Positions 2,156 to 15,710 of a stretch of 64,000 nt of DNA are shown here, piece by piece; within the stretch, counting starts at the first letter, position 1, and every line of letters begins with the position of its first letter. The notes beneath the pieces were generated by a model that was given only the letters and a program-made list of their open reading frames with translations, made no database searches and was not told where the DNA came from. The position numbers and the translations under genes are program-made. The DNA is from Planctomycetota bacterium (GTDB lineage: Bacteria > Planctomycetota > UBA1135 > UBA2386), in assembly GCA_965228735.1 (NCBI GenBank), contig OZ245838.1, positions 768,001 through 832,000 of the forward strand, given 5' to 3'.

Positions 2156-4849
2156 ATGTTCGATCGCTTCATCAGGCTGGCACGGGCTCGCAAGGCCCTG
2201 CAAGAAAAACGCTTCGAGGATGCTCTGCAGCTCGCGGACGATCCGCTGATCGCAGGCACCCGGCGCGCCGAGACGATTCGCGACAAGGCTCGGGCCGCGC
2301 TGCTCACCCGCGCGCGCGAGCGGCTGGCTCAGGGTGAGATTCCGGCGGCGCGGAAGCTCGCCGAACGGCTGCGGCAGGCCGGCGCGGATGCCGGCGTGCA
2401 GACGCTGATCGGCGATCTCGACGCGGCCGAGTCGCGCGACCAGGAGGTCTCGACCGAGGCCCGGAAGGTCGCGGAAGAGGCCCGCAAGCTGCTGCAGCGC
2501 GGCGAGCTCGCGGCGGCGGCGGCGGCCGTGGCGGGGATGCCCGAGGGTGGTCCGGCCGGATTGCAGAGGCAGCTCGAGGCGCAGGTCCAGGAGAGCAAGC
2601 TTCAAGCCAAGGAGCAGCTCGATCACGTCGCGCGCCATCTCGCGCAGACGCGGGTCGACGAGGCGCAGAAGGCGTTCGCCAAGGCGGCGGCGCTCGATCG
2701 CGATGCAGCTGCGAACGCGACCGTGCGCGGCCGGTTGTTCGACGCGCTCGCCGACGGTGCGGGCGGCCGGATCCGCGAGCAGATCGAGCGCGGTGACCTG
2801 CTCGCGGCGTGCGCTGCGGTGCGGGCCGTTCGTGGGCAGGCGGCGACGTTCGAGATCGGGCAGGCGGTGGGCGACGTGCGCGCGCTGAAGAAGCCGCTCA
2901 GCGGTCTCGAGTCCGCGTTGGTCGCCGAGTGGCGGCGCGCGACGGACATCACGGCCGCCGCGGAGCTTGCCGAGGCGGCGCACGAGGCCGGGCTCGAACT
3001 GCCCGCGGCGACGGCGGAGCTGGTGGCCGCGCTGCGCACGGTCCACGCGGCCGGCGCGGGCGATCCGGAACTGCTGCAGAAGCTGCGCGACGTCGCGCGG
3101 ACTGCTGGGTGCAAGTCGCTCGGCAAGGCCGTCGACGGCAAGCTGCTGCGCCTCGACGATCAGGATCAGCGCGTCACGGCAGCCCGTGAGCTCATGGCGC
3201 AGGGCGATCTCGACGCTGCGCGCGAACGGCTGACCGCGGTCCTCGCGGACGACCCGCTGCACGAAGCGGCCCGGCGCGAGCTCGACCTCGTCGAGCAGGG
3301 CATCGGTTCTCTGAGCGAGCAGCTCACGGCGGCCCGCACGGCGGCCCGTGAGGGCCGGCTGCGCGCGGCGTGCAGCCAGGCGCTCGCGCTCGGCACGGCG
3401 GGGCGACTCGGCAACGAGGCGCAGCTGCTGCTGACCGACGTGCGCGCGCGCATGGCGCTGGTCGATCGCGGCCTCGACGAGGTGCGGACGACGCTGCACG
3501 GCAAGGCGGCCGGCAGTCTGCAGGGCGTGCGTCACTGTCTCGCGCGGCTCGAGGAGCTGCGCAAGGTGCAGTGCGATCACGACGAGCTCGATCGCGTCGT
3601 GCTGGCCATCGAGACCGAGATCCAGGGCCTCGAGGCCTGCGATCGCGCGGCCGCCGCGCTGGCCGATGACGATCTCGTGACCGCGGCAGCGAGCCTGTCC
3701 GAGGTGCTCGGTTCGCGCCGCGATCTGCTCGTTCCCGAGCGGCTCGACGCGCGCGTGCTCACGCTCGCCGATCGCTTCCACGCGCACGGCGAACGCGCGC
3801 TCGCGGCCGGCCGCGGCGGCGATCTCGAACGGTGCGCGGCCGTGCTCGACGGCCTCGCCGCCGTGAAGTCCGACTTCGGCGAGACCGCCGCGCACTGGCG
3901 TCGCGACGCCGAACGGCGCAAGCAGGCGGCGGACGACAAGGCCGCGGCGGCGCGCGCCGCGATCGCGGAGCGCGACCTCGCGACGGCCGAGCAGTGCCTC
4001 GAGGAGGCAACTGAACTGTGGGCCGACTGCGCCGCCGTGCGCACGCTGCGGGGCGAGCTCGCGGGGCACCAGCGGCGCCACGACGAGCTCGAACAGGTCG
4101 AGGCGCTGGCCGCCGAGGCGGACTACCAGGGCGCGGCCGAGAAGCTCGCGGCCATGCCGCCGACGCCGGCGCTGCTGCGGACGAGGATCTTCGACATGAA
4201 GCAGCAGCTCGCGCGGGCGCAGGGCCTCGAGGGCGCGTTCCTCATGCGCGTCGACGAAGGCGGTGAACATCTCGTCGTGCGCGGCGAGAGCATCTCGATC
4301 GGCAACGTGCGCCAGAACCGCGCGGACCTGCCCGTGCTCGCGAACGTCGCGGGGCGGCATGCGACGATTCGTCGCAGCATGTCGTTCCACGGCGGCATGG
4401 AGGACACCGTCGTCGCCGAGGATGGCGAGGTGCGCGTGCGCGGCCGCCGCGTGCAAAAGCACAAGCTGCAGGACGGCGACACGATCCAGTTCGGTCCGTC
4501 GCTCGCCGCGAGCTACCGGCAGCCGACCGAGCGGTCGCTGACCGCCGGCCTCGTGCTCCAGGGCGGGTTCCAGATCGCCGGCACCGAGCGCGTGCTGCTG
4601 ATGAAGGACCGCGGCAAGGACGGCCGCATCCTGGTGGGCCCCGGCCGCGACGTGCACGTGCGCGTCACCGGCGCCTCGCACGAGGTCGAGCTGTTCGCCG
4701 CGAGCACGGGCCAGATCCGCGTGCACTGTCCGGCCGGCGGCACGATCGACGGCTCGCCGTTCAAGGGCGAGCACCCGGTCGACGCCGGCCAGGTCGTGAC
4801 CGCGGGTGGCGTAACGTTCGTGCTCCTGCCCTGGCGCCCGTCGCCGTAG
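2156..4849 (+). CDS. Alpha-helical (TPR-like) repeat protein with C-terminal tandem FHA-like domains
   Basis: About 690 aa of Ala/Leu/Glu/Arg helical repeats, then beta-rich ISIGN...VAGRHATIRR...LQDGDTIQFG; GC3-rich codon usage. Confidence 0.75.
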   Translation: MFDRFIRLARARKALQEKRFEDALQLADDPLIAGTRRAETIRDKARAALLTRARERLAQGEIPAARKLAERLRQAGADAGVQTLIGDLDAAESRDQEVSTEARKVAEEARKLLQRGELAAAAAAVAGMPEGGPAGLQRQLEAQVQESKLQAKEQLDHVARHLAQTRVDEAQKAFAKAAALDRDAAANATVRGRLFDALADGAGGRIREQIERGDLLAACAAVRAVRGQAATFEIGQAVGDVRALKKPLSGLESALVAEWRRATDITAAAELAEAAHEAGLELPAATAELVAALRTVHAAGAGDPELLQKLRDVARTAGCKSLGKAVDGKLLRLDDQDQRVTAARELMAQGDLDAARERLTAVLADDPLHEAARRELDLVEQGIGSLSEQLTAARTAAREGRLRAACSQALALGTAGRLGNEAQLLLTDVRARMALVDRGLDEVRTTLHGKAAGSLQGVRHCLARLEELRKVQCDHDELDRVVLAIETEIQGLEACDRAAAALADDDLVTAAASLSEVLGSRRDLLVPERLDARVLTLADRFHAHGERALAAGRGGDLERCAAVLDGLAAVKSDFGETAAHWRRDAERRKQAADDKAAAARAAIAERDLATAEQCLEEATELWADCAAVRTLRGELAGHQRRHDELEQVEALAAEADYQGAAEKLAAMPPTPALLRTRIFDMKQQLARAQGLEGAFLMRVDEGGEHLVVRGESISIGNVRQNRADLPVLANVAGRHATIRRSMSFHGGMEDTVVAEDGEVRVRGRRVQKHKLQDGDTIQFGPSLAASYRQPTERSLTAGLVLQGGFQIAGTERVLLMKDRGKDGRILVGPGRDVHVRVTGASHEVELFAASTGQIRVHCPAGGTIDGSPFKGEHPVDAGQVVTAGGVTFVLLPWRPSP

Positions 4850-4974
4850 CCGGGCTCTGGCACGCGAACGCGGGATCCACACCCAACCCAGCACCCGGTC
4901 CTGGCGGGCAGATTACGGTATAGCGGAAAATAGAATGCGGGGAGAGGGAACAAGGGTTGGCCCCGACTTTCCTT

Positions 4975-4999
4975 CGAATAGTCGCCCGTCGAGCCCGTA
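4975..4999 (+). promoter_or_regulatory. Putative ECF promoter CGAATA-N15-CGTA
   Basis: Motif shared with two other upstream regions of this locus; followed by the SD AGGAGG and ATG 5021. Confidence 0.55.
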
Positions 5000-5020
5000 T
5001 GCGGCGACAGGAGGTCCCCG

Positions 5021-5641
5021 ATGTTCGCAGTCCTCACAGCCGCCACACTCTGCTTCGCCCCGCAAGGCCCCGCCGACGACTTCGGCGCGTCCGATTCCGC
5101 CCGTTCGGAATCCGTTGCGGTCGCCGCCACCGCCGTCGCGGTGCAGGGCGAGACCGAGCTCACGCCGGCCGAGGCCTACGCGTCGGCGTCCCGCGCGGCG
5201 TCCGCGCACGTCCGCGAACGCTGGAACGAGCGGGCCAATCGGGCGGCCGAACTGCGCCGGCCGTTCTGGCTGCCGCAGATCCTGGTCGACGAGCACGTGC
5301 GGCGCTGGCTCGCGGATCTGCCGATCGAGCGCCTCGCGCAGGTCGTCGATCGCGACGACAAGAAGCGCATCCACGAGTTCGGCAACAGCTACCAGACGAC
5401 CTTGTGGGTGGCCGAAGAGCCGCGTCGGGTCGCGCAGGGCGAAGAACGGCTGCAGCGCACGCTGCGCCGGCTCGAGCGGACCACGGCCTACAAGTACGGC
5501 GGCATCGTCGCGGGTTGGGCCCTGCTCGCGTTCGTCGTGAACTGGCTGGATCGGCTCTCGCGCGGCTACATGACCGGGCGGTTGCGGTGCATCGGTCTGC
5601 TCTGTGGCGCCGCGTTCCCGGCCGCGCTGTTTCTCGTGTAA
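5021..5641 (+). CDS. Hypothetical membrane protein (N-terminal signal-like segment, two C-terminal TM segments)
   Basis: Strong SD AGGAGG; hydrophobic GGIVAGWALLAFVVNWL and CIGLLCGAAFPAALFLV. Confidence 0.75.
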   Translation: MFAVLTAATLCFAPQGPADDFGASDSARSESVAVAATAVAVQGETELTPAEAYASASRAASAHVRERWNERANRAAELRRPFWLPQILVDEHVRRWLADLPIERLAQVVDRDDKKRIHEFGNSYQTTLWVAEEPRRVAQGEERLQRTLRRLERTTAYKYGGIVAGWALLAFVVNWLDRLSRGYMTGRLRCIGLLCGAAFPAALFLV

Positions 5642-5665
5642 CCTACTGCAACCCCGAAGGACCCC

Positions 5666-7078
5666 ATGGAGGCACCTCGCATCGACTCCGAAGGCCAGGC
5701 CGACGCGCCCGACCGCGTCGACTGGGAAGCCTTCTACCAGAGCTACCGCAAGCCGGGCTACGTGCCCGGCTTCGAGATCATCCACAAGCTGGGTGGCGGG
5801 ATGTTCGGCCTCGTCTTCAAGGCGCGGAAGGAGTCGATCGGCAAGGACTACGCGATCAAGTTCCTGAAGGTCGACGACGAGACCGTGCGCGATGCGGTCG
5901 CGCGCGAGCTCGACACGGTGCGGTTCTTCGCCCAGATCGACCACCCCAACCTCGTGTCGATCGAGGACAAGGGCATCGTCGACGGCATCCCGTTCCTCGT
6001 GATGAGCTACGCCGGGCAGGAGACGCTGCAGAAGCGCCTGCAGGCCGGGGGCCAGCCGGGCGAGCGCCTGCCCCGCGAGGAAGCGCTGCGGATCTTCGCG
6101 CAGGCCGCGCGCGGCGTGCAGGCGCTGCACGAGCATTCGCTCGTCCACTTCGATCTCAAGCCGGCCAACATCTTCCTGAAGGGCGACGTCGCGCGCGTTG
6201 GTGACTACGGGCTCAGCAAGCTCGTCAGCGAGTCGCGCAACTCGCTGAGCTTCAGCCGCGGCACGCCGTACTACATGGCGCCGGAGATGCTGCAGCGGCG
6301 CGGCGACAGCAAGAGCGACATCTATTCGCTCGGCGTCATCCTCTACGAGTGCCTCTACGGCGACGTGCCGTTCCGCGGGGATTCGGAGTGGGAGGTGCTG
6401 CGCAAGCACGAGACGGCGCAGCCCGAGTTCCCGGCCGATGCGATCGCGGGCGACCGCGAGATCGTGCTGCGCTGCATGGCGAAGGACCCGGCCGATCGGT
6501 TCGACTCGGTGGCCGAACTGCTGCGCGCGCTGCAGGCGCCCGTCGCGCTCGGTGAGAGCCTGGTGTTCGATCGTCGTCCGGCGCCGCCAGCTTCCGCCCC
6601 AGCGCCGTCCGCAAACGGGCAGCGCCCGGCGGTCCGGCCGCTCGGTGCGCCGCCGGCGCGCCCGTTCCCGACGCCGCCGCCGTTGCCGCGGCCGGACGCG
6701 ATGCCGGTGCCGCCGCCGCCGCCGCCAGTTGGCGATGCCGAGAACGTGGCTCTTGCCGGGCCGGGTGCCCTGCCCGCCGGCCAACGCGACCCCGCCGACA
6801 GCCCCTACGGCATGCCGTGGCGCGAAGAGCCGCGCAAGAGCGGTGGCCCGGTCGGGCTGCTCGTGCGCGGGATGTTCGGGCTGATCGACCTCGTCATCGC
6901 GCTCGTGATGCTGCCCGTGCGGGTGGTGAGCTGGTTCGCCAGCCGCGGCGTCGGGATGCTCGTTCGCCTGCCGGGCCGCGTGCTCGCGGTCGCGGCCCAG
7001 CTCATCGGGCTGCTCGTGGTCGCGGGGCTCGCGCTGCTCGTCGTGGTCACGGTGCTGCAACTGCTCGGAGCGGTCTGA
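5666..7078 (+). CDS. Hanks-type Ser/Thr protein kinase, non-RD, with Pro-rich linker and C-terminal membrane anchor
   Basis: LGGGMFGLV, YAIK, HFDLKPAN, DYG, GTPYYMAPE, DIYSLG. Confidence 0.95.
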   Translation: MEAPRIDSEGQADAPDRVDWEAFYQSYRKPGYVPGFEIIHKLGGGMFGLVFKARKESIGKDYAIKFLKVDDETVRDAVARELDTVRFFAQIDHPNLVSIEDKGIVDGIPFLVMSYAGQETLQKRLQAGGQPGERLPREEALRIFAQAARGVQALHEHSLVHFDLKPANIFLKGDVARVGDYGLSKLVSESRNSLSFSRGTPYYMAPEMLQRRGDSKSDIYSLGVILYECLYGDVPFRGDSEWEVLRKHETAQPEFPADAIAGDREIVLRCMAKDPADRFDSVAELLRALQAPVALGESLVFDRRPAPPASAPAPSANGQRPAVRPLGAPPARPFPTPPPLPRPDAMPVPPPPPPVGDAENVALAGPGALPAGQRDPADSPYGMPWREEPRKSGGPVGLLVRGMFGLIDLVIALVMLPVRVVSWFASRGVGMLVRLPGRVLAVAAQLIGLLVVAGLALLVVVTVLQLLGAV

Positions 7079-7169
7079 CCCGCGCTGCTGGCCCGATCGG
7101 CGGTGCGCAGCCGGCCCCGGATTCGGGCCGCGCGAACTGCCCCGGGCCGCTATCCTGCTACCTCCCGCG

Positions 7170-7838
7170 ATGAGCGATCGATCCTTCGACATGGACCGCC
7201 TGCAGGCGATGGACGAGGCCGCCTGGTCCGAGCTGCAGGGTGAGTACTACCGGCGCATCTACTTCTACGTGAAGCGCTTCGTCACGGACCACCAGACGGC
7301 CGAGGACCTCACGCAGGACGTCTTCCTCGGCGCGGTGCGGGGCATCGGCGGATTCGACCCGAGCTACTCGCTGGACCAGTTCCTGTTCGGCATCGCGAAG
7401 AACCGGGTCATCGATCATTACCGCAAGCACAAGATCGCGCTGATCCCGAGCAAGGCCGATGGTGACGGCAGCGGCGGGGATTCGGACCGCAGCCAGATCT
7501 GGCTCGAGAACATGCCCAACGAGGCCGCGCCGCAGCCGAAGGAGCGCGTCGTCGAATCCGAGGACGGCGGGCGCCAGCGCAAGGTGCTCGCGACGATCCT
7601 GCGGGACATGGTGTCGGACCTCTGGAGCAACGGCGAGTTCCAGAAGCTCATGGTCCTCGAGTTCCTGTTCGTGCTCGGCGGCCGCAACAAGGACGCCGCG
7701 ACGCGCTTCGGCATCGCGGACGAGAAGCACGTCGCGGGGATCAAGTTCCGGGCCGTGGATCGGCTGCGCGGCCTGGCGCGGCAGCACGACCCGAACCATT
7801 CGCTGTTTCGCGGGCTCTGGCAGCCGGGGGCCCGGTAG
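7170..7838 (+). CDS. ECF RNA polymerase sigma factor
   Basis: Region 2 TAEDLTQDVF...FLFGIAKNRVIDHYRK; HTH-like region 4 NKDAATRFGIADEKHV. Confidence 0.9.
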   Translation: MSDRSFDMDRLQAMDEAAWSELQGEYYRRIYFYVKRFVTDHQTAEDLTQDVFLGAVRGIGGFDPSYSLDQFLFGIAKNRVIDHYRKHKIALIPSKADGDGSGGDSDRSQIWLENMPNEAAPQPKERVVESEDGGRQRKVLATILRDMVSDLWSNGEFQKLMVLEFLFVLGGRNKDAATRFGIADEKHVAGIKFRAVDRLRGLARQHDPNHSLFRGLWQPGAR

Positions 7839-7843
7839 GACCG

Positions 7844-8179
7844 ATGAGCACCGATCCGACGAATCCCGGCAGCGGTGGCGACGGCAGCGAGATCGAGATC
7901 GATCCGCACCTGACGTTCACGGTGGCCTCGGTCTGGCGCGATGAGCGGATCTCGTGCCCGCACCCGCACGTGCTCCAGAGCTACATCCAGGGTGGCCTCG
8001 ACGGGGGTGCGGCCGAGTTCGTGCGCTTCCATCTCGACGAGAGCCAGTGCCCGTACTGCAACGCGATCGTCGAGGACCTGCAGGCCCGGGACAGCGAGGC
8101 CAAGGAGCAGCAGCTCGAGGATCTGAAGGATCGGCTGCTGCGGTCGACGGCCACGGCGCTGCGGAAGGGCCGCGCCTGA
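7844..8179 (+). CDS. Small soluble zinc-finger (zf-HC2/ZAS-like) protein, putative anti-sigma factor
   Basis: CP...HLDESQCPYC motif; directly follows the ECF gene; no TM segment. Confidence 0.75.
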   Translation: MSTDPTNPGSGGDGSEIEIDPHLTFTVASVWRDERISCPHPHVLQSYIQGGLDGGAAEFVRFHLDESQCPYCNAIVEDLQARDSEAKEQQLEDLKDRLLRSTATALRKGRA

Positions 8180-8364: not shown

Positions 8365-9207
8365 ATGATCCGCAAGACTTTCAAGGTGGCGCTTCTGACC
8401 GGTGCGGTGCTCGGCGGGGCAGGATTCCTTTTCTTCGGCACCGCCTTCCCCAGCTACGTCAGCTCGATGGCCACGTCCGTGCGTGAGTCGGTCGCTGGCC
8501 AGATCCCGATCGAACTCGAGATCAAGCGGGCCGAGGGCCTCATCAAGCAGATCGATCCGCAGATCGACAACTGCAAGCGTGACCTCGCCCGTTCGGAGGT
8601 CGAGCTCGAGGATCTGCAGGAGTCGATCCAGGAGCTCGAGGAGCGCGTCGCGGTCGAACAGCGCAAGCTGAAGCGCGGCTACAAGCTGTTGCAGGACGGC
8701 GGCGACATCGAGCTCGCGGCCAACTACGGCGCCCGCCGTCGCGTGACGCTCGACCTGCAGCGCACCAAGGACAGCTACGTCAACAACACCGCGATCCTGA
8801 AGGCCAAGCGCATGCTGGTCACCCGCGAGACGCGCAACGTCGAAGCCGCGAAGGAGAAGCTGATCGCGGTCCGCACGCAGCGCGAGTCGCTGATCGACCA
8901 GATCCGTTCGCTCAAGACCCAGCAGCGCGAGATCGAGACCCTGGCCGCGAACAGCGACCGCTTCGACCTCGACAGCTCGGCGCTGAGCCAGGCCAAGGAA
9001 GTGATCGAGACGGTGCGCAAGCGCCTCGACGTCGCCCAGCGCGTGCTCGAGAACGACATGGCGTTCCACGGTGAAGACCCGGACGCCCCGGTCGTCAGCC
9101 AGCGCGACATGATGTCGGAGCTCGAAGAACTCTTCGCCGCGGAAGCTGCGCCGAACAGCGCGAGCGCGGAGGTCATCGAGATCCCCGCCGAGACGCGCGG
9201 CCGCTGA
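8365..9207 (+). CDS. Membrane-anchored or exported long coiled-coil protein (loosely PspA/IM30-like)
   Basis: MIRKTFK plus a hydrophobic segment, then about 200 aa of heptad-rich helix. Confidence 0.75.
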   Translation: MIRKTFKVALLTGAVLGGAGFLFFGTAFPSYVSSMATSVRESVAGQIPIELEIKRAEGLIKQIDPQIDNCKRDLARSEVELEDLQESIQELEERVAVEQRKLKRGYKLLQDGGDIELAANYGARRRVTLDLQRTKDSYVNNTAILKAKRMLVTRETRNVEAAKEKLIAVRTQRESLIDQIRSLKTQQREIETLAANSDRFDLDSSALSQAKEVIETVRKRLDVAQRVLENDMAFHGEDPDAPVVSQRDMMSELEELFAAEAAPNSASAEVIEIPAETRGR

Positions 9208-9228
9208 GCTCTCGCCAACGGAATCATC

Positions 9229-9306
9229 GCGGCGGCGACCTTCGCTGCCGCACCAACGCCAAACGGCGCGACCGGCTTCGGCCGGGCGCGCCGTTCGGCG
9301 TTCGGT
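9229..9306. terminator. Two hairpins between convergent genes
   Basis: GCGGCGGCGA-cct-TCGCTGCCGC (9229-9251), and a long stem capped by C(UUCG)G (9252-9306). Confidence 0.55.
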
Positions 9307-9324
9307 AGGGGAGGCGAGCGCGAG

Positions 9325-11766
9325 TCAGCGAGCCCGGATCTTCACCGAACCCCGGATGATCGGGGTGATCATCCGGAGCGCGAGGCGGAACGCCTTCGCG
9401 TTGGACTCGGCCTCGTTGGGCAAGCCCTTCGAACGCCCGTTGCGGCGCCGGCGCCCGTTGCGGCGCTTGCCACCGCGGCGGCTGCTGCCACCGCCGAGGA
9501 GGTTCGACAGCGCGTTCGTCGCCGCGGGCTTCACCACGTCGACGATGTGCGGTGCCATGCTCGCGAGCAGGCCGAACGCCTTCTGGGCCACCTCGTCGTC
9601 GATTTCGTCGCCGTCGCCGTCGCCGAAGTCGGCGTCGCCATCCGGGTCGTAGGCGTCGTCGTCATCGTCGCCGACGCCGGCGATCTGCAGGCTCGACAGC
9701 CAGTCGTCCTGGTCGTCGTCGTCCACGACGTCGAAGTCCTTCTTGCGGCGCCGGCGCTTGCCGGCGTTGCCGAGCGCCGCGGTGGCGCCCTGGATGAGCA
9801 GCGGAGCGAGCGCGGCCAGAACGGGCAGCGCCTTCTCGGTGGTCTCGTCGTCGAGTAGTTCGTTGGTCATGTCAGTCTCCTTCATCAGGTTCTGCAACCG
9901 CGCGAGGAGCCGCGTCCACACGTCTCCTTCGCGTCGATTGGTCTCGTGGTCGCCCGCCGTGGGGCGGGCCGTGACGTCGCGCAGCGCGAGGAACGTGCGC
10001 TCCGCGAGCCGGAACGGGCCCGGCGGCTCGTGGATCGTCGGGGTCTGGCGGAACCCGTGATCCGCGAGGGTCGACCGCACGCTCCCCAGCAGGCGCGACG
10101 CGGTCGCGTCCGGACCGTGCTCGTCGATCGCTTCGAGCAGCGCGTAGGTGAACGCGGACAGTCCGCGGGTGCGGGCCGTCGACGCCGACGCGGTCTCGTT
10201 CTCGGAACAGGCGGCGAGCACGAGGCCCTTGAGCGGGGTGTCGCTGAGCTCGTCGGCGGTCGATTTGCTCGCGCCGAAGCGCCGATAGCCCGTGATCTCG
10301 ATGGGTTCGTTGCCGGCCGATCTCTGGTTCGCGTCCGGGTTCGCTTCCGGGGGCGACGTCGCGTCGATCGCCCAGCGCTTCGGCGCCGCGAAGTCGGCCG
10401 TTCCATCGACGCTCCCGAAGACGATCTTGTCCATGCCGCCCGAGAAGCACGAATCGAGCACGGCCGTGAACACGCCGTCCGGCAGCTGCTGGCTGCGCTC
10501 GGCGAGCACGTCGTCGATGTAGAAGCCGTCGCGCAGCACGAGGACCTCGGTCAGCACGCCGTCGATCGGCAGCTGGTGGCCGTGCCCGGAGTAGTAGAAG
10601 ACGGCGCGGTCGTTCTCGGTGAGGCCGTCGAACAGCCACGCGAGTCCGTCCTCGACCGCCGTGAGCGTCGCGTCCTCGTCGGTGATCACGCGGATGTCGT
10701 CCTGCCGGTAGCCGACGCGTTCGAGGTGGGCCTGGAACGCGCGCGCGTCCGCGACGCAGCTGGGCAGGTTGTTGCGCGGGTTGCCGTAGTCGTTGAGCGC
10801 GACGAGCAGCGCGCGCCGTTGACCCGTCGCGCCGTCGGGCAGCGCCTTGTCGTTGCCGAGCAGCGCGGTCCACGTCTGCGGACCGACGATGCCGTCGGCC
10901 TGCAGCCGTTCGGCGCGCTGGAACGCGATCACGGCGCGCTCGGTCTTGCGGCCGAAGATGCCGTCGACGCTGCCCGGCGGGTGGTCGAGATCGGCGAGCC
11001 GGCGCTGCAGTTCGCGGACCTCGGTGCCCGTCGAACCGACCCGCAGCAACGGCCGGGAGCTCGAGCGTCCGGGTGCCGGCTCGGTGGCGGGCGGCGCCGT
11101 CAACGCGCCGTCGCTGTAGCTGTGCCCGAGGACCGCGCGGTCGACGAGCGTGTAGTAGATCGTGTCGGTCGGATGGTCGTCGGCGAGCTCGAGCAGCTCC
11201 TGCCACGCCGTGCCCGTGCGGCCGCCGTGCACGACCTGGCAGCCCGCGGACCACTTGCCGACGCGGCTGCCCGTGCCGGCATCGTGGATGTTGATGCCGA
11301 AGTAGCCGGTCTCGACCGTCTCGCCCGCGCCCTGCTCGTGGTCGCGGTCACCGTCGCGCCAGATCGTGACGGGCCCGGCCTGCACGAGGCCCGGGCGCCC
11401 CTTGTGGAGGCCGGTCTTGTAGCGGTACTGGCCGTCGACGAGATGGGCGCACCCGGCGCTGCGCATCGGGTTGTCGGTCCAGTACTGGCCCGGGTCGACC
11501 GACGCGAGGAACTCGCGCACCCGCTTCCTGCCCGCGGCGTCGCGCCAGATCACCGCGATCGTGTCGTTGTAGCGGTCGGGTGAGTTGCTCACGGGCCGCC
11601 CGTCGCGATAGCCGCGGATGCCGAGCAGGTTGATCGCGCGTCGGCGCGAGTCGAAGCGGCCGATGCGTTCGATGACCGCCTTGTAGCGGCCGTAGAGAGT
11701 CGCCTCGGAGGCGCCGGATCTGCTGAGCCCGGAGTCGTCCCTGGGCCGTGTCGTCGTCTGGGTCAT
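9325..11766 (-). CDS. Multidomain protein: L,D-transpeptidase-like Cys domain + peptidoglycan-binding domain + metacaspase (Peptidase C14) + acidic/amphipathic peptide tail
   Basis: GINIH...WSAGCQV; LRVGSTGTEVRELQRRL...DGIFG...FQ...DGIVGPQTW; RALLVALNDY, LPSCVAD, YYSGHG (His codon 10582-10584), LDSCFSG (Cys codon 10447-10449). Confidence 0.9.
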   Translation of the reverse strand: MTQTTTRPRDDSGLSRSGASEATLYGRYKAVIERIGRFDSRRRAINLLGIRGYRDGRPVSNSPDRYNDTIAVIWRDAAGRKRVREFLASVDPGQYWTDNPMRSAGCAHLVDGQYRYKTGLHKGRPGLVQAGPVTIWRDGDRDHEQGAGETVETGYFGINIHDAGTGSRVGKWSAGCQVVHGGRTGTAWQELLELADDHPTDTIYYTLVDRAVLGHSYSDGALTAPPATEPAPGRSSSRPLLRVGSTGTEVRELQRRLADLDHPPGSVDGIFGRKTERAVIAFQRAERLQADGIVGPQTWTALLGNDKALPDGATGQRRALLVALNDYGNPRNNLPSCVADARAFQAHLERVGYRQDDIRVITDEDATLTAVEDGLAWLFDGLTENDRAVFYYSGHGHQLPIDGVLTEVLVLRDGFYIDDVLAERSQQLPDGVFTAVLDSCFSGGMDKIVFGSVDGTADFAAPKRWAIDATSPPEANPDANQRSAGNEPIEITGYRRFGASKSTADELSDTPLKGLVLAACSENETASASTARTRGLSAFTYALLEAIDEHGPDATASRLLGSVRSTLADHGFRQTPTIHEPPGPFRLAERTFLALRDVTARPTAGDHETNRREGDVWTRLLARLQNLMKETDMTNELLDDETTEKALPVLAALAPLLIQGATAALGNAGKRRRRKKDFDVVDDDDQDDWLSSLQIAGVGDDDDDAYDPDGDADFGDGDGDEIDDEVAQKAFGLLASMAPHIVDVVKPAATNALSNLLGGGSSRRGGKRRNGRRRRNGRSKGLPNEAESNAKAFRLALRMITPIIRGSVKIRAR

Positions 11767-11793
11767 TCTTCGTCCCTCGGTTGGTCAGAGGGA

Positions 11794-11821
11794 CAACGAC
11801 ACGGCGGCGTCAGGTCCGCCA
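11794..11821 (-). promoter_or_regulatory. Putative ECF promoter TGGCGGA-N14-GTCGTTG
   Basis: 14 of 14 conserved bases and identical spacing with 15573-15600; 27 nt upstream of ATG 11766. Confidence 0.65.
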
Positions 11822-11931
11822 AGGGGCCCGCGAATCTCCGGGGAAGCCCGCAAAACCGCGACCGCGCGCCGGGAGTCGGACTCCGGGCGCGCGGTCGCGG
11901 TCATCGGGCAGCGGGGGTGGCGTGCCGACGC

Positions 11932-12720
11932 TCAGGCCTCGGCGTCGTGCTCCATGTGCCGATCCAGGACGTGCTGCAGCGGCAGGTTCATCACGAAGCG
12001 GAAGTGGATCTGGAACTTGGCCGTCAACTTCCGGTCCGGATCGATCTCGCGCATCACCGCGTCGTCTTCGTCGTTGAACAGCTCGTCGAAGACGTTGAAC
12101 GGGCGCCGCCCCGCCCGCACGACGCGCGGCAGCCGCGTGGCCTTCGCGATCTTCGCGCCCTTGCGGGGCGCGAACCGTGGCACGCGGGCTATCCGTGTGC
12201 GGCCGCCATCATCGTCGTCCGCGGGTTCGACCTCGTAGTTGTATTGCACGATCGCGCGACCGCGTTCGTCGTAGGTCACGGTGACGCACGTGTGGTTGCT
12301 GTCGCCGTCGTCGCCGCTCCGGCTCCGACTGCTCTTCTTCGCGGTGCTCGTCTTGCCCTTCTTCGCCGCCTTGCGGGGGCGGACGGCCGGCAGTGCGCCG
12401 AGGTTGTAGATGCCGATGTCGGTATCGAACCGCAGGCCGAAGTTGCCCGTGTTGTACTTCTTCAGCGCCTCCCCGACCGCGTCGTGCACCTTGTCGTTGA
12501 GCGGGTGGAAGCTGGTCGGGTCGATGCGCACACGCGGGTTCCACCACACGGATCCCATGAGGTTGCGAAACGCCGTGGTCTTGCCGCCGCGCAAGCGGCG
12601 GCCTGCGAGCTCGATCACGCGGCAGCGATCGAGGTTGCTCAGCGCGTTGAAGTACGGCATGCACGTGCGTTCGTAGTCGAGCACGAAGCGCAGCTGACAG
12701 TTCTGGAACGACTGGTTCAT
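11932..12720 (-). CDS. Hypothetical protein (262 aa), translationally coupled to the kinase
   Basis: ATGA overlap with the kinase stop, AGGAG SD, protein-like composition from MNQSFQNC. Confidence 0.8.
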   Translation of the reverse strand: MNQSFQNCQLRFVLDYERTCMPYFNALSNLDRCRVIELAGRRLRGGKTTAFRNLMGSVWWNPRVRIDPTSFHPLNDKVHDAVGEALKKYNTGNFGLRFDTDIGIYNLGALPAVRPRKAAKKGKTSTAKKSSRSRSGDDGDSNHTCVTVTYDERGRAIVQYNYEVEPADDDDGGRTRIARVPRFAPRKGAKIAKATRLPRVVRAGRRPFNVFDELFNDEDDAVMREIDPDRKLTAKFQIHFRFVMNLPLQHVLDRHMEHDAEA

Positions 12721-14909
12721 CGGTTCTCCTTCTGGGTGGACGAGGGGTCGGTGGAGCCGGGCTTCGCCGCGGTGGCGGTGCGCGGTGGCGCCGGCGTGAG
12801 GCTCTTGGCGCAGCGCAACCCGAGATCGCCGGTGGCGTCGAAGGTCGGGCTGCTCCGGGGGAACCCGAACATGAAGAGCTTCTCGGCGGAGACGGCCCAG
12901 GAACCACCGGTCGCGAGCCTCCCCGTCCGCGAAGCGACTTTGAACTCCGACGGATCGGCGAGCCACTCCCGCACGTTGCCGAACGGCTGCAGGATGCCGC
13001 GCTCCGCGTAGGTGCCCGCGCGATCCGCGGGCACGGCGTGCCGCACGAAGTGGCTCACCTCCTGATCGCTGCCGCGCCCCAGCACGAACGGTGTCGTCGC
13101 ACCGTCGGTGAGATGGTCCTCGAGCCAGGTCTCGGCGCGTCCCATGGCCAGGTCCCATTCGACCGCCGTGGGCAGTCGCTTGCCGACCCACTCGGCGTAC
13201 TCGCGGGCCTCGCGCCATTCGACGAACACCATCGGGAGTTCGTCCCAGTCGGCGCGCGGCGGCTCGTCCCAGATCTTCTGCAGCCCAGAGATGGTCCAAC
13301 TGCTCGGCCGTTCCCGGCCGACGGCCTGCAGGAACGTCCGGTATTGCCCGATCGTGACCGGCGCCCGGTCGATGAGGAACGGTCGGCAGTCCTGCATTGC
13401 CGAACTCAGCTGGGTGCCGGACGGCGTTCCGACGAGGTTCCACATCTCGAGGGCGCCGCCGTCGACGCGCACCATCTCCGACTCGACTTCGGCAACCGTC
13501 GCGAAGCGCACGTGAGCGAGATCGATCGCCGACTCGTCCGCCCGTCGCCGGAGCTCCGCGAACGCCCCGCGCTCGTCGACGAGCACGATGCGGGCCTCGC
13601 CGGACCGCATGTCGAAGGTCCGCTCGTTGCGCTCGACGGTCGCGCGTTCCGGTGGCGCCCAACCCGCCGCGGCGCCGAGCCACGGACTCACCGTCACAGC
13701 GAGCGACTGGGTGCCGGACACGGTGACGGCGCGATCGGCGTCCTCGGCCGCCGCGGTTTCGCCGCCGGCGAACGCCGCGAACCCGGCCAGGGCGAGCAGT
13801 GCTCCGGCGAGCGCCGCGAGCGTCACCGCGCGGCGGCCGGCGAAGCGCTGCAGCCGATACCAGAGGCTCGGCGGGCGGGCCGCGACCGTCGCGCCGGCGA
13901 GGTACCGCTCGAGGTCACGCTGCAGTTCGGCGGCGCTGGCGTAGCGGTCGTCGCGATCGCGACGCAGCGCCTTCAGGGTGACGAGCTCGAGGTCGCGCGG
14001 CACGTTGTCGCGCAGTCGCCGCAGCGGTCGCGCATCCTCGTGCGTGATGCGATGCAGGATCTCCTCGACGCTCGCGCCGGGGAACGGCGGCTCACCCGTG
14101 AGCAGCTCGTGCAGCACGGCGCCCGCGGAATACACGTCGGTGCGCGCGTCGACCGGTTCACGTTCGGCGCGCACCTGCTCGGGGGACATGTAGAGCGGCG
14201 TGCCCGCGCTGTGCCCGGACCGACTGATCGCGTCGAGGTGCAGGACCTTGGCGAGCCCGAAGTCGATCACGTGCGGCCGATGGTCGCGATCGACGAGGAT
14301 GTTCTGCGGCTTGATGTCGCGATGCAGCACACCGCGTTCGTGGCTGTAGGCGAGTGCCTCGGCGACGTCGCGCATCAGCCGCGCACAGACCACCGGGTCG
14401 CCGAAGTCCGGTCCACCGGCGACGGCACCGTCCATGAGCTGGCGCAGATTCCAGCCCGCGACGAGCTGCATCGCGTAGTAGAAGAGGCCGTTGGCCTGCC
14501 CGAACGCGAGCACGGGCACGATGCGCGGATGCACCAGTCGCGACGCCGCGAGCGCCTCGCGCTTGAAGCGCTCGGTCGCGAGCGGATCGCTGGGCACGCG
14601 CGGGTCGAAGACCTTGACCGCGACCGGCCGGTCGAGCTCGAGCTGCGTCGCGCGATACACGACGCCCATGCCGCCGCGGCCGATGAGCTCGTGCAGCTCG
14701 AAGTCGCCGAGGCGGGTGCCGGCGAGCGACGGCGGCGGGGCGTCGAGGTCGGTGAGGAAACCGGCGGTCTGGGCGGCGCACAACCGCGCGACCTCGGCGG
14801 CGAGTTCGCGATCGGGCTCGCCTGCCAGAAGGGCATCGCGTTCAGACCCGGGCAGGTCCGCGACGCGGTCGAACAAGGCCTCGACCTTAGCCCAGCGTTC
14901 GGCGTTCAA
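12717..14909 (-). CDS. Ser/Thr protein kinase with TM segment and C-terminal FGE-sulfatase (SUMF1)-like domain
   Basis: IGRGGMGVVY, VAVK, HRDIKPQN, DFGLA, GTPLYMSPEQ; C-terminal KRLPTAVEW, GNVREW, GGSW, GLRC; TTG start after AGGAG. Confidence 0.93.
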   Translation of the reverse strand: MNAERWAKVEALFDRVADLPGSERDALLAGEPDRELAAEVARLCAAQTAGFLTDLDAPPPSLAGTRLGDFELHELIGRGGMGVVYRATQLELDRPVAVKVFDPRVPSDPLATERFKREALAASRLVHPRIVPVLAFGQANGLFYYAMQLVAGWNLRQLMDGAVAGGPDFGDPVVCARLMRDVAEALAYSHERGVLHRDIKPQNILVDRDHRPHVIDFGLAKVLHLDAISRSGHSAGTPLYMSPEQVRAEREPVDARTDVYSAGAVLHELLTGEPPFPGASVEEILHRITHEDARPLRRLRDNVPRDLELVTLKALRRDRDDRYASAAELQRDLERYLAGATVAARPPSLWYRLQRFAGRRAVTLAALAGALLALAGFAAFAGGETAAAEDADRAVTVSGTQSLAVTVSPWLGAAAGWAPPERATVERNERTFDMRSGEARIVLVDERGAFAELRRRADESAIDLAHVRFATVAEVESEMVRVDGGALEMWNLVGTPSGTQLSSAMQDCRPFLIDRAPVTIGQYRTFLQAVGRERPSSWTISGLQKIWDEPPRADWDELPMVFVEWREAREYAEWVGKRLPTAVEWDLAMGRAETWLEDHLTDGATTPFVLGRGSDQEVSHFVRHAVPADRAGTYAERGILQPFGNVREWLADPSEFKVASRTGRLATGGSWAVSAEKLFMFGFPRSSPTFDATGDLGLRCAKSLTPAPPRTATAAKPGSTDPSSTQKENR

Positions 14910-14913
14910 CGGT

Positions 14914-15522
14914 TCACTCCTGGTCCTCCCCGAGCTCGGCGGCGAGCCAGGCGCGCGCCGCCGTCCACTTCCGTTCGAAGGTCCGCTTGCTCAGCCCCAG
15001 GGCATCGGCGGCTTCCGCCACGCTCGCGCCGCCGAAGAACCGCAGCTCGACCGCGCGTGACATCTCGGCGTTGAACGTCTGCAGCCGTTCGAGCGCGTCG
15101 TCGAGCGCGACGAGGTCGCCGCTGCGCAGCTCGGCGGCAGCCGCGATACCGTCGAGCGCGACCCGCTTCGCGCCGCCGCCGCGCTTGTCCCGGAGCTTGC
15201 CGCGCGCGTGATCGACGAGCACCTGCCGCATCGCGTGAGCCGCGACATTGAGGAAGTGGGCGCGGTCCGCGAAGCGCGAGTCGTCGGTGGCCGCGACCTT
15301 GAGCCACACCTCGTTGAGCAGGGCGGTCGCCTGCAGCGTGTGCCCCTCCGGCTGGGCGGCCATGTTCCGCCGCGCGAGCGCGTGCAGTTCGCGATGCAGC
15401 CAGATGGCCAGGCGCTCGCGCGCTTCGGCATCGCCGTGCTGCGATCGCCGGATCCAGTGCGTGATCGTTCCGTCGCCGGGCTCCGGCGTCGTTCCCGCGG
15501 ATGACTCTGAGGGCATTGGCAT
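14914..15522 (-). CDS. ECF sigma factor, TIGR02999/ECF43-like
   Basis: GHTLQATALLNEVWLK, AAHAMRQVLVDHAR, KRGGG, VELRFFGG, ARAWL; start could be 15516. Confidence 0.92.
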   Translation of the reverse strand: MPMPSESSAGTTPEPGDGTITHWIRRSQHGDAEARERLAIWLHRELHALARRNMAAQPEGHTLQATALLNEVWLKVAATDDSRFADRAHFLNVAAHAMRQVLVDHARGKLRDKRGGGAKRVALDGIAAAAELRSGDLVALDDALERLQTFNAEMSRAVELRFFGGASVAEAADALGLSKRTFERKWTAARAWLAAELGEDQE

Positions 15523-15572
15523 GGTCCTGGTGGTGGCGGCGCCACCGCTCCGGGCCCGCGCGTCGACCTCTC

Positions 15573-15600
15573 CAACGACGAATCGCCGCGCGTTCCGCCA
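15573..15600 (-). promoter_or_regulatory. Putative autoregulatory ECF promoter TGGCGGA-N14-GTCGTTG
   Basis: Matches 11794-11821; 50 nt upstream of the sigma start. Confidence 0.65.
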
Positions 15601-15710
15601 TGATACGCGACAACCGGCTCCGGCGGCGCCGGGGGGGTGTGGAATCACGAAATCACGCCGCCGAGGAGGTTGGATTCGGCTCCCCGCGGTCGCTAGCCTC
15701 CTTCGCCCGA

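Follow-up and report, generated by a model that had tools for sequence, protein, structure and literature searches.

What does a bacterial metacaspase do with an array of cationic peptides fused to its own C-terminus? The question is raised by an 813-codon open reading frame (ORF) on the minus strand of a 64,000-nucleotide stretch of DNA from a Planctomycetota bacterium (GenBank assembly GCA_965228735.1, contig OZ245838.1, positions 768,001 to 832,000; hereafter the window), in which an L,D-transpeptidase-fold domain, a peptidoglycan-binding domain and a metacaspase precede a tail formed by the last 181 codons (Table 1). The original prediction took this tail for an array of acidic spacers, Lys-Ala sites and cationic amphipathic peptides, from which the fused protease releases pore formers. 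Comparative evidence partly supports that interpretation, and we infer both release and pore formation. The reading that we judge somewhat better than even is that the metacaspase frees membrane-permeabilizing peptides together with a predicted lysin, lysing its own producer upon induction. It builds on features established at the level of sequence, namely the architecture, the K/x-hydrophobic sites at core ends and at the lysin border, the alternation of charge, the amphipathicity of the cores, the existence of fused and split forms and the lack of a signal peptide.

The peptide array and its processing sites

The three peptides and a fourth Lys codon, that of K307, translate exactly from where the original prediction had placed them, and K307 does separate the peptidoglycan-binding domain from the caspase domain (Pfam PG_binding_1, residues 246-302; Peptidase_C14, residues 317-579). 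All three cores are cationic (+7, +11 and +6) and the hydrophobic moments of their first 18 residues (0.22, 0.38 and 0.69) lie above shuffled values (P = 0.034, 0.005 and 0.004), in keeping with the amphipathic character first ascribed to them. The acidity ascribed to the spacers holds for the leader and for spacer 2 (−4 and −23), whereas spacer 3, at −1, is barely acidic. The AlphaFold model of the tail consists of isolated helices at low confidence. No Pfam, NCBIfam, PHROG or PADLOC model matches the tail or the homologous tails, and the ESM Atlas gave no usable match for the tail, a result that bears on neither novelty nor absence. Cores 1 and 2 of the lysin-fused subclade (see below) end in long Arg/Lys runs (9739-9759 and 9427-9480 in the window), with charges of +7 and +11 against a family median of +2; we take these runs to resemble cell-penetrating or nuclear-localization sequences.

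The candidate sites are more frequent than in shuffled sequences. K-A-[LF] occurs four times in the 813 residues, where shuffles average 0.29 (P = 0.0002), and K-x-[LF] five times in the 181-residue tail, where they average 1.2 (P = 0.003). As read from the alignment of the eight closest full-length sequences, Lys is kept in 8/8 at K729 and K780, in 7/8 at K307, K645 and K676, and in 7/8 at K791, with one Arg there. The K-A-(L/F) motif first proposed survives in part: Lys and the hydrophobic P2′ residue are conserved, but the Ala at P1′ is not, its place being taken by F, I, W, G, D and other residues. This excludes K-A-(L/F) as a fixed motif, and the rule becomes K/x-hydrophobic at both ends of a core. 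The exit sites K676/DF and K780/GL had been overlooked, as had the internal Shine-Dalgarno (SD) sequence and ATG at 9870 described below.

The same rule can be read across the family. In 38 non-redundant tails, Lys is followed by a hydrophobic P2′ residue in 355/512 cases (69%) against 28 ± 2% in shuffles, and Arg is not enriched (165/568). Matches from the initial search only give 105/172 (61%, against 26% shuffled), and 77 outgroup caspase ORFs give 482/1522 (32%, against 27%). Cutting in silico at K/x-hydrophobic sites leaves largely alternating segments: 155 cores, chosen by the N-terminal hydrophobicity of the segments (median length 29 residues), are net positive in 76% of cases, and the 223 other segments are net negative in 73%. 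The hydrophobic moment of the cores is 0.33, compared with 0.17, and peaks at 95 degrees. Entry sites read E/Q/D-K followed by F-L, F-W or I-F, and exit sites read R/x-K followed by D-F, G-F or E-L (D/E/G at P1′, F/L at P2′), a form near the signature reported for AtMC9, with basic P3 and P1, acidic P1′ and hydrophobic P2′ (PMC10235996).

Stand-alone precursors P0101, P0107 and P0126 carry Arg at both entry and exit, and the homologous P0097 and P0122 carry Lys at both; this concerted switch would follow if a single protease recognized both ends. Among 7993 candidates there was no long fused form of an Arg-type precursor, which is weak evidence, and the proteases belonging to P0101, P0107 and P0126 were not found. 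The cores conserve physical properties, not sequence (mean column identity 29%), and often contain a central Pro. Judged from such sequence features, cleavage at the Lys sites is very likely and activity of the cores on membranes reasonably probable.

The initial search, with protease and tail as query, returned 47 proteins, most of them with long tails of repeated units. A 30-unit profile run against 1.84 billion representatives gave 85 matches, of which 23 carry both protease halves, seven p10 only and 55 neither; the protease-free proteins are mostly tail fragments or stand-alone precursors, with a few eukaryote-like look-alikes and one false positive with HEAT repeats (P0086), which was set aside. 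A total of 67 proteins score as the window metacaspase clade, 52 of them with at least one unit and 45 with at least two; the 52/67 count is partly circular because the unit profile retrieved some of those proteins, and the 15 without units include truncated, split and divergent tails. The number of units, whose variation among homologs had been proposed as a check, ranges from one to more than ten. In a quick IQ-TREE analysis of 74 rows, which left out L099 and the protein of G019 (a genome of the same family as the host; its protein is identical in sequence to P0006, labeled Planctomycetes bacterium at NCBI), a long branch (SH-aLRT 100) splits 49 family rows from 25 other bacterial metacaspases, and the seven lysin-fused rows form a subclade (SH-aLRT 95).

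Named hosts are Bradyrhizobium, Microvirga, Blastococcus, Sinorhizobium, Paraburkholderia, Kofleriaceae, Verrucomicrobiales and Obscuribacterales. The family is rare: it was found in 3/91 genomes of the host's taxonomic family, in 0/2 congeners, in the center genome alone of an alphaproteobacterial set of 401 and in 5/72,556 plasmid records. Its count across GTDB genomes is a lower bound, the matches listed there being mostly outgroup caspases. Unit-profile scans detected only the three tail units and one weak match (E = 0.16) in the host genome (G000), which encodes one C14 protease, and nothing off-locus in five other genomes, excluding further trans-substrates there. A viral origin of the protease was also rejected, as eight p10-pattern matches in viral contigs included no relative.

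Table 1. Features of the polyprotein locus (window coordinates; residue numbers refer to the 813-residue protein)
Feature	Coordinates	Strand	Residues	Remarks
Polyprotein ORF	11766-9325	minus	813 aa	L,D-transpeptidase-fold domain, peptidoglycan-binding domain, metacaspase, three-unit peptide tail
Predicted muralytic domain	11131..11688	minus	27-212	L,D-transpeptidase/carboxypeptidase fold; PHROG and structure matches
H161 and C176 of L,D-peptidase-fold domain	11284-11286; 11239-11241	minus	161; 176	Invariant in 8/8 sequences
PG_binding_1 domain	10861..11031	minus	246-302	Pfam E = 3.8e-22; structure matches Z 11-14
K307	10846..10848	minus	307	Predicted site freeing the lysin module from the protease; Lys then x-L/W in 7/8 homologs; putative cleavage
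Metacaspase p20 + p10	9991..10818	minus		Pfam, profile and structure matches
Catalytic dyad H395, C440	10582-10584; 10447-10449	minus	395; 440	
SD-like AAGGAG + in-frame ATG (M633)	9868..9885 (ATG 9870-9868)	minus	633	Predicted second start, 181-aa precursor alone
Acidic leader 1	9832..9870	minus	633-645	Net −4; ends in entry site K645
Core peptide 1	9739..9831	minus	646-676	31 aa; +7; ends at exit site K676/DF
Asp-rich spacer 2	9580..9738	minus	677-729	Net −23; ends in entry site K729
Core peptide 2	9427..9579	minus	730-780	51 aa; +11; ends at exit site K780/GL
Short spacer 3	9394..9426	minus	781-791	Net −1; ends in entry site K791
Core peptide 3	9328..9393	minus	792-813	22 aa; +6; most amphipathic; ends at stop codon
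Orphan ORF	11932..12720	minus	262 aa	Overlaps kinase stop (ATGA); coupled translationally to kinase
Ser/Thr kinase-FGE-sulfatase-like protein	12717..14909	minus		Co-inherited upstream regulator
ECF sigma factor	14914..15648	minus		Co-inherited upstream regulator

The protease and the predicted lysin

The identification of the protease as a metacaspase (clan CD, C14B) stood: the fold is recognized by profile and structure matches and the His-Cys dyad is intact. Its nearest solved relatives are AtMC9 (Foldseek E = 2e-15), AtMC4, CgMCA-I, Yca1 and TbMCA2, and both p20 and p10 align to CgMCA-I. The S1 residues proposed for TbMCA2 (C92, D95, S156 and D211; PMC4357240) align to C337, D340, S393 and D438, which form an acidic S1 pocket, and the C-x-x-D of this pocket is present in 53/55 sequences parsed. 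Three acidic motifs had originally been assigned to the pocket; CVAD and LDSC match S1, but YIDD (D418/D419) belongs to the Ca2+ site, corresponding to D189/D190 of TbMCA2 (PMC4357240). In TbMCA2 this site comprises four Asp residues (D173, D189, D190 and D220; PMC4357240); in the window protease E407, D418 and D419 are present and K447 (10426-10428) replaces the fourth, which lies seven residues past the catalytic Cys (D220 in TbMCA2, D245 in CgMCA-I; PMC9622860). The Ca-independent AtMC9 likewise retains three Ca-site residues only (PMC10235996). Cleavage after Lys or Arg is predicted from the conservation of the sites. K501 (10264-10266), in the p20-p10 linker, is a Lys after a conserved F-G in 7/8 close homologs and, by analogy with AtMC4 K225, a candidate auto-inhibitory or self-cleavage site.

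The N-terminal domain, according to structural modeling, has the L,D-transpeptidase/carboxypeptidase (YkuD) fold. It matches phrog_3000 (E = 1e-38), which may be an unannotated L,D-peptidase family, and phrog_33083 (E = 8.5e-13), the weaker match from which alone the label "endolysin" comes. Structural alignment with VIA-align gave Bd1075 (Z 8.9; rmsd 3.5, 127 aligned), Pgp2 (8.7), Csd6 (8.2) and Tlde1a (5.9), and 16 L,D-transpeptidase-fold rows cover residues 17-226 at Z 5.9-8.9; these Z values are middling and the model used has a mean pLDDT of 77. Foldseek alone was below significance (best E = 0.17). The catalytic motif of L,D-transpeptidases is His ... Ser-x-Gly-Cys, and H161, G175 and C176 are found in 8/8 sequences and S173 in 6/8, with what reads by eye as Thr or Val otherwise. 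Lytic action on peptidoglycan is predicted for this domain. It has tblastn matches in 25 phage records, and one phage homolog, annotated hypothetical, lies between the tail tube and tail chaperone genes of Pseudoalteromonas phage ACA1 (L131:3911-4531).

An assembly artifact joining two genes was considered and rejected. In each of three runs (X1, X2 and X3), any one of which may be the source of this DNA, a single contig with zero differences spans 9000-13000; because these contigs cross the whole region, the fusion is unlikely to be artifactual. Seven full-length homologs (49-60% identity) share the fused layout, and GC content at third codon positions (GC3) is 0.79-0.97 along the whole length of the ORF.

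Split genes, neighborhood and competing explanations

Both the internal start signals and the split genes suggest that the precursor is probably made as a separate product. M633 has the strongest SD sequence of the seven ATGs in the ORF (−8.1 kcal/mol, with the anti-SD sequence checked against the 16S end of the same genome) and is invariant in the 8/8 closest full-length sequences; the junction ATG ranks first or second by SD strength in 5/10 fused loci with DNA. At the protein level, 25/38 tails have a Met ahead of the first unit that is preceded by an SD-compatible dipeptide, and such a dipeptide precedes 32/70 junction Mets versus 32/306 other Mets. In two Kofleriaceae genomes and three plasmids (L021, L022, L128, L129 and L130; myxobacteria and rhizobial plasmids) a gene of its own, immediately following that of the protease, encodes the precursor, so that tail and protease remain adjacent. 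Two further plasmid matches are from Bradyrhizobium. Neither a sigma-70 promoter nor an intrinsic terminator pattern was seen in 9100-12000, and there was no RNA run among those listed for the sequence words of 9200-12000. Some stand-alone precursors (P0097, P0101 and P0122) end in a C-terminal domain of about 120 residues that has no Pfam match; others (L021:1758-2354, L022:5992-6633, P0078 and P0125) end in a different one of about 75 residues, for which L021 and P0078 were scanned and had no Pfam match. Targeting or receptor binding is a possible role for such modules.

Gene order is the same in G000 and G019: ECF sigma factor, Ser/Thr kinase-FGE, a variable orphan ORF and the polyprotein. 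The window kinase is the best G000 match to the G019 kinase (411 versus 228 bits for the next of 87 matches), and the window ECF is the best match to the G019 ECF (183 versus 133 bits for the next of 17). Elsewhere the regulators are an ECF factor and kinase (L017), a kinase (L022), BTAD (L099) or a two-component pair (L018). Of the 11 loci with context, four have a fused or nearby muralytic enzyme. These enzymes belong to three families unrelated to one another, namely the L,D-peptidase fold (G000 and G019), GH108 (Sinorhizobium) and N-acetylmuramidase (Paraburkholderia). The 262-residue orphan, a candidate immunity or trigger protein, matched only itself among proteins of 144-459 residues, and the ORF in its slot in G019 is unrelated, with no BLAST similarity to the C-terminal 201 residues of the window orphan. 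A second cluster of ECF sigma, kinase and anti-sigma-like genes (plus strand, 2156-8179) converges on the polyprotein gene, and on the Sinorhizobium plasmid an ORF with F-box-like and leucine-rich repeat regions lies downstream (L129:11477-13132).

Lysis of the producer might proceed as follows. The upstream ECF-kinase pair would induce the operon, and the internal start would yield extra precursor, whose acidic spacers would mask the cores until Lys-specific cuts free them. The cores would then enter the inner membrane in a holin-like manner, while the L,D-peptidase module, freed from the protease, would get to the wall; lysis would release leftover peptides and lysin onto neighbors. As all components would be produced inside the cell and carry no export signal, the producer's own membrane is placed first, and overall we lean modestly toward the producer as the first target.

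Several observations weigh against this sequence of events. The Cys+7 position is Lys in 51/51 sequences parsed, which makes Ca2+ dependence doubtful. D352 in the p10 of AtMC4 lines the pocket, and its Ala mutant loses self-cleavage (PMC7206013); the position aligns to S527/A528, the parsed motifs have no acidic residue there, and this missing counterpart argues against assuming a standard pocket, with an invariant E524 nearby. The Asp is not required of every metacaspase, but its loss is a departure. K-x-hydrophobic is raised inside the clade's protease domains too (258/473), where it may mark self-processing sites or structure, so that part of the tail signal may be structural. Of the cores, 14% are net negative and many only +1 to +2, and a strong junction SD is missing in the other 5/10 fused loci with DNA. 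The L,D-carboxypeptidase fold is also found in shape enzymes that are not lytic (Csd6 and Pgp2). No muralytic gene was recognized in 7/11 loci (L017, L018, L019, L020, L022, L099 and L128, of which L017 is cut downstream and L018 and L020 were judged mostly from translations), and no defense-system model matched beyond generic caspase and generic kinase models, nor was a phage-sensor fusion seen.

The peptides and lysin might instead strike competitors or prey, for example by way of a secretion machine, with processing alike and the producer surviving. A precedent is Tlde1a, a type VI secretion system toxin with the L,D-transpeptidase fold (PMC9638812), and G000 encodes TssF elsewhere in the genome; the patchy distribution (3/91 family genomes), carriage on mobile plasmids and separate, possibly targeting, C-terminal domains (P0097, P0101, P0122, L021 and L022) would also suit a weapon. 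However, the loci examined showed no gene for a transporter or for secretion and no conserved immunity gene, the upstream orphan ORF is not conserved, and there is no signal peptide: by a simple heuristic, the best 11-residue hydropathy in the first 45 residues is 0.2-0.8 in eight bacterial proteins, against 1.8-3.0 in two eukaryote-like look-alikes. We regard an outward weapon as unlikely.

If the released cores were danger or developmental signals, not membrane disruptors, the parallel would be AtMC4, one of the two closest solved enzymes (with AtMC9), which matures Pep1 from PROPEP1 (PMC7206013), and signaling regulators do adjoin most loci (G000, G019, L017, L022, L099 and L018). Those regulators are not one conserved receptor family, however; the cores keep physical properties at a mean column identity of 29%, and their high copy number and co-occurrence with a lysin suit a bulk effector, which makes signaling quite improbable.

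Still less credit is due to a tail that stays uncut, as pseudo-substrate repeats that inhibit the protease or as a scaffold binding membrane or lipid. Metacaspases are often blocked by a Lys in the active site (K225 in AtMC4; PMC7206013), and amphipathic helices are frequent in scaffolds; the low-confidence AlphaFold model of isolated helices speaks neither for nor against this reading. Yet a single site would be enough for an inhibitor, whereas units reach more than ten and are flanked by sites on both sides, five loci encode the tail as a gene of its own, and Lys changes to Arg in concert at both ends. Most doubtful of all is that the protease acts as a transpeptidase that cyclizes or ligates the cores into a ribosomal natural product like plant asparaginyl endopeptidases of clan CD (PMC6010433), for although entry and exit sites share the x-hydrophobic P1′-P2′ pattern that a ligase would need and a central Pro is frequent, last cores, such as core 3 of the window protein, often run up to the stop codon and have no exit site, the cores of this protein range in length from 22 to 51 residues, and the loci examined showed no tailoring genes.

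Relation to known systems and significance

EACC1 and gasdermin set a precedent for caspase-released pore formers (PMC12642450). Like the EACC1-caspase, Pepco and bacterial gasdermin modules, the window family pairs a caspase-like protease with a latent non-enzymatic protein predicted to be membrane-active after site-specific cleavage, in fused or adjacent genes with a patchy, mobile distribution (PMC12642450). Those effectors, as described there, are single folded beta-type pore formers that are cut once, and their proteases are fused to sensors (PMC12642450), whereas the window family has a multi-core helix array predicted to be cut at both ends, a metacaspase with a putative basic P1, no sensor and sometimes a lysin. 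Neither the tail nor the homologous tails matched Pfam, NCBIfam or PADLOC models for EACC1, Pepco (Trypco) or gasdermin; NF047832 matched the caspase only, far below cut-off. The clade proteins consist of caspase and tail or of lysin, caspase and tail, with no fusion to a phage sensor (STAND, CRISPR or others).

Melittin and frog-skin peptide precursors are multi-core eukaryotic peptide precursors, with hydrophobic-then-basic helices, and the window family has the hallmarks of such precursors in its repeated cationic amphipathic cores, acidic spacers and basic processing sites. Independently, the bacterial unit profile picked up P0113, a protein above the cut-off for PF08024 (ant antimicrobial peptides); other eukaryote-like precursors that the profile retrieved are P0072, P0112, P0119 and P0105, the last a fungal repeat protein from Ascobolus immersus. 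Candida Ece1, the source of candidalysin, is a larger precursor whose hydrophobic-then-basic helical cores are cut out at basic sites (PMC5784256). The resemblance is probably convergent: eukaryotic multi-core precursors are secreted proteins that kexins or dipeptidyl peptidases with housekeeping roles process, whereas the window family lacks a signal peptide and has a dedicated protease in the same or the next gene.

AtMC9 and AtMC4 with its substrate PROPEP1 are the best structural and profile matches and share the basic P1 (PMC7206013, PMC10235996); the exit sites fit the AtMC9 signature and, as in AtMC9, one Ca-site Asp is lost (PMC10235996). The window protease differs from both in its fused and repeated substrate, the Lys at Cys+7, the lack of the p10 pocket Asp and a short p20-p10 linker. 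The phage-related muralytic and peptidoglycan-binding domains beside predicted membrane-permeabilizing peptides recall phage holin-endolysin pairs, and an L,D-peptidase muralytic domain is shared with Tlde1-type toxins (PMC9638812); in contrast to holin-endolysin systems there is no holin with transmembrane helices, and proteolysis would set the timing.

Some further members broaden the picture. P0128, an Arg-type two-unit precursor labeled Thermoproteota archaeon at NCBI, suggests that the system reaches archaea. P0087 (363 residues, without Pfam match), possibly eukaryotic, has E-K/F units and an N-terminal region that is SAM-like by eye. The Obscuribacterales member (L019:4917-7199) has a divergent Gln/Gly-rich tail without clear Lys sites, and an alphaproteobacterial member (L020:4719-6957) has a frameshift near the catalytic Cys in the assembly. 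About half of the words sampled from 9200-12000 are contained in coral and macroalgae metagenome runs (X8, X10 and X11), hinting at a marine surface habitat.

No description of such a system was found in open-license PMC and bioRxiv texts, although supplements of surveys (e.g., PMC12642450) could list the family. We conclude that it is an undescribed effector family, a variant of protease-gated effector systems that is a member of neither the gasdermin/EACC1 type nor the Ece1 type. That at least six bacterial phyla evolved a multi-core cytolytic precursor, with one gene supplying a probably Ca-independent Lys-specific metacaspase, surplus precursor, up to a dozen peptides and a lysin, is a proposal that we put just short of even; if true, the ribosomal antimicrobial peptides would gain a new class, and bacteria would have a pathway of lytic death driven by a metacaspase without gasdermin. 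Bacterial metacaspases are widespread, with roles assigned mainly from domain architecture (PMC3501461). Since the proteins of this clade come with a candidate substrate in which one cleavage motif recurs many times, specificity, trigger and a role in cell death become directly testable, and cultured hosts are at hand in Bradyrhizobium, Sinorhizobium meliloti, Microvirga aerilata and Paraburkholderia sabiae. If the cores are membrane-active, the family would offer at least 155 natural helical peptides outside all library models and a new type of effector for protease-gated killing in prokaryotes.

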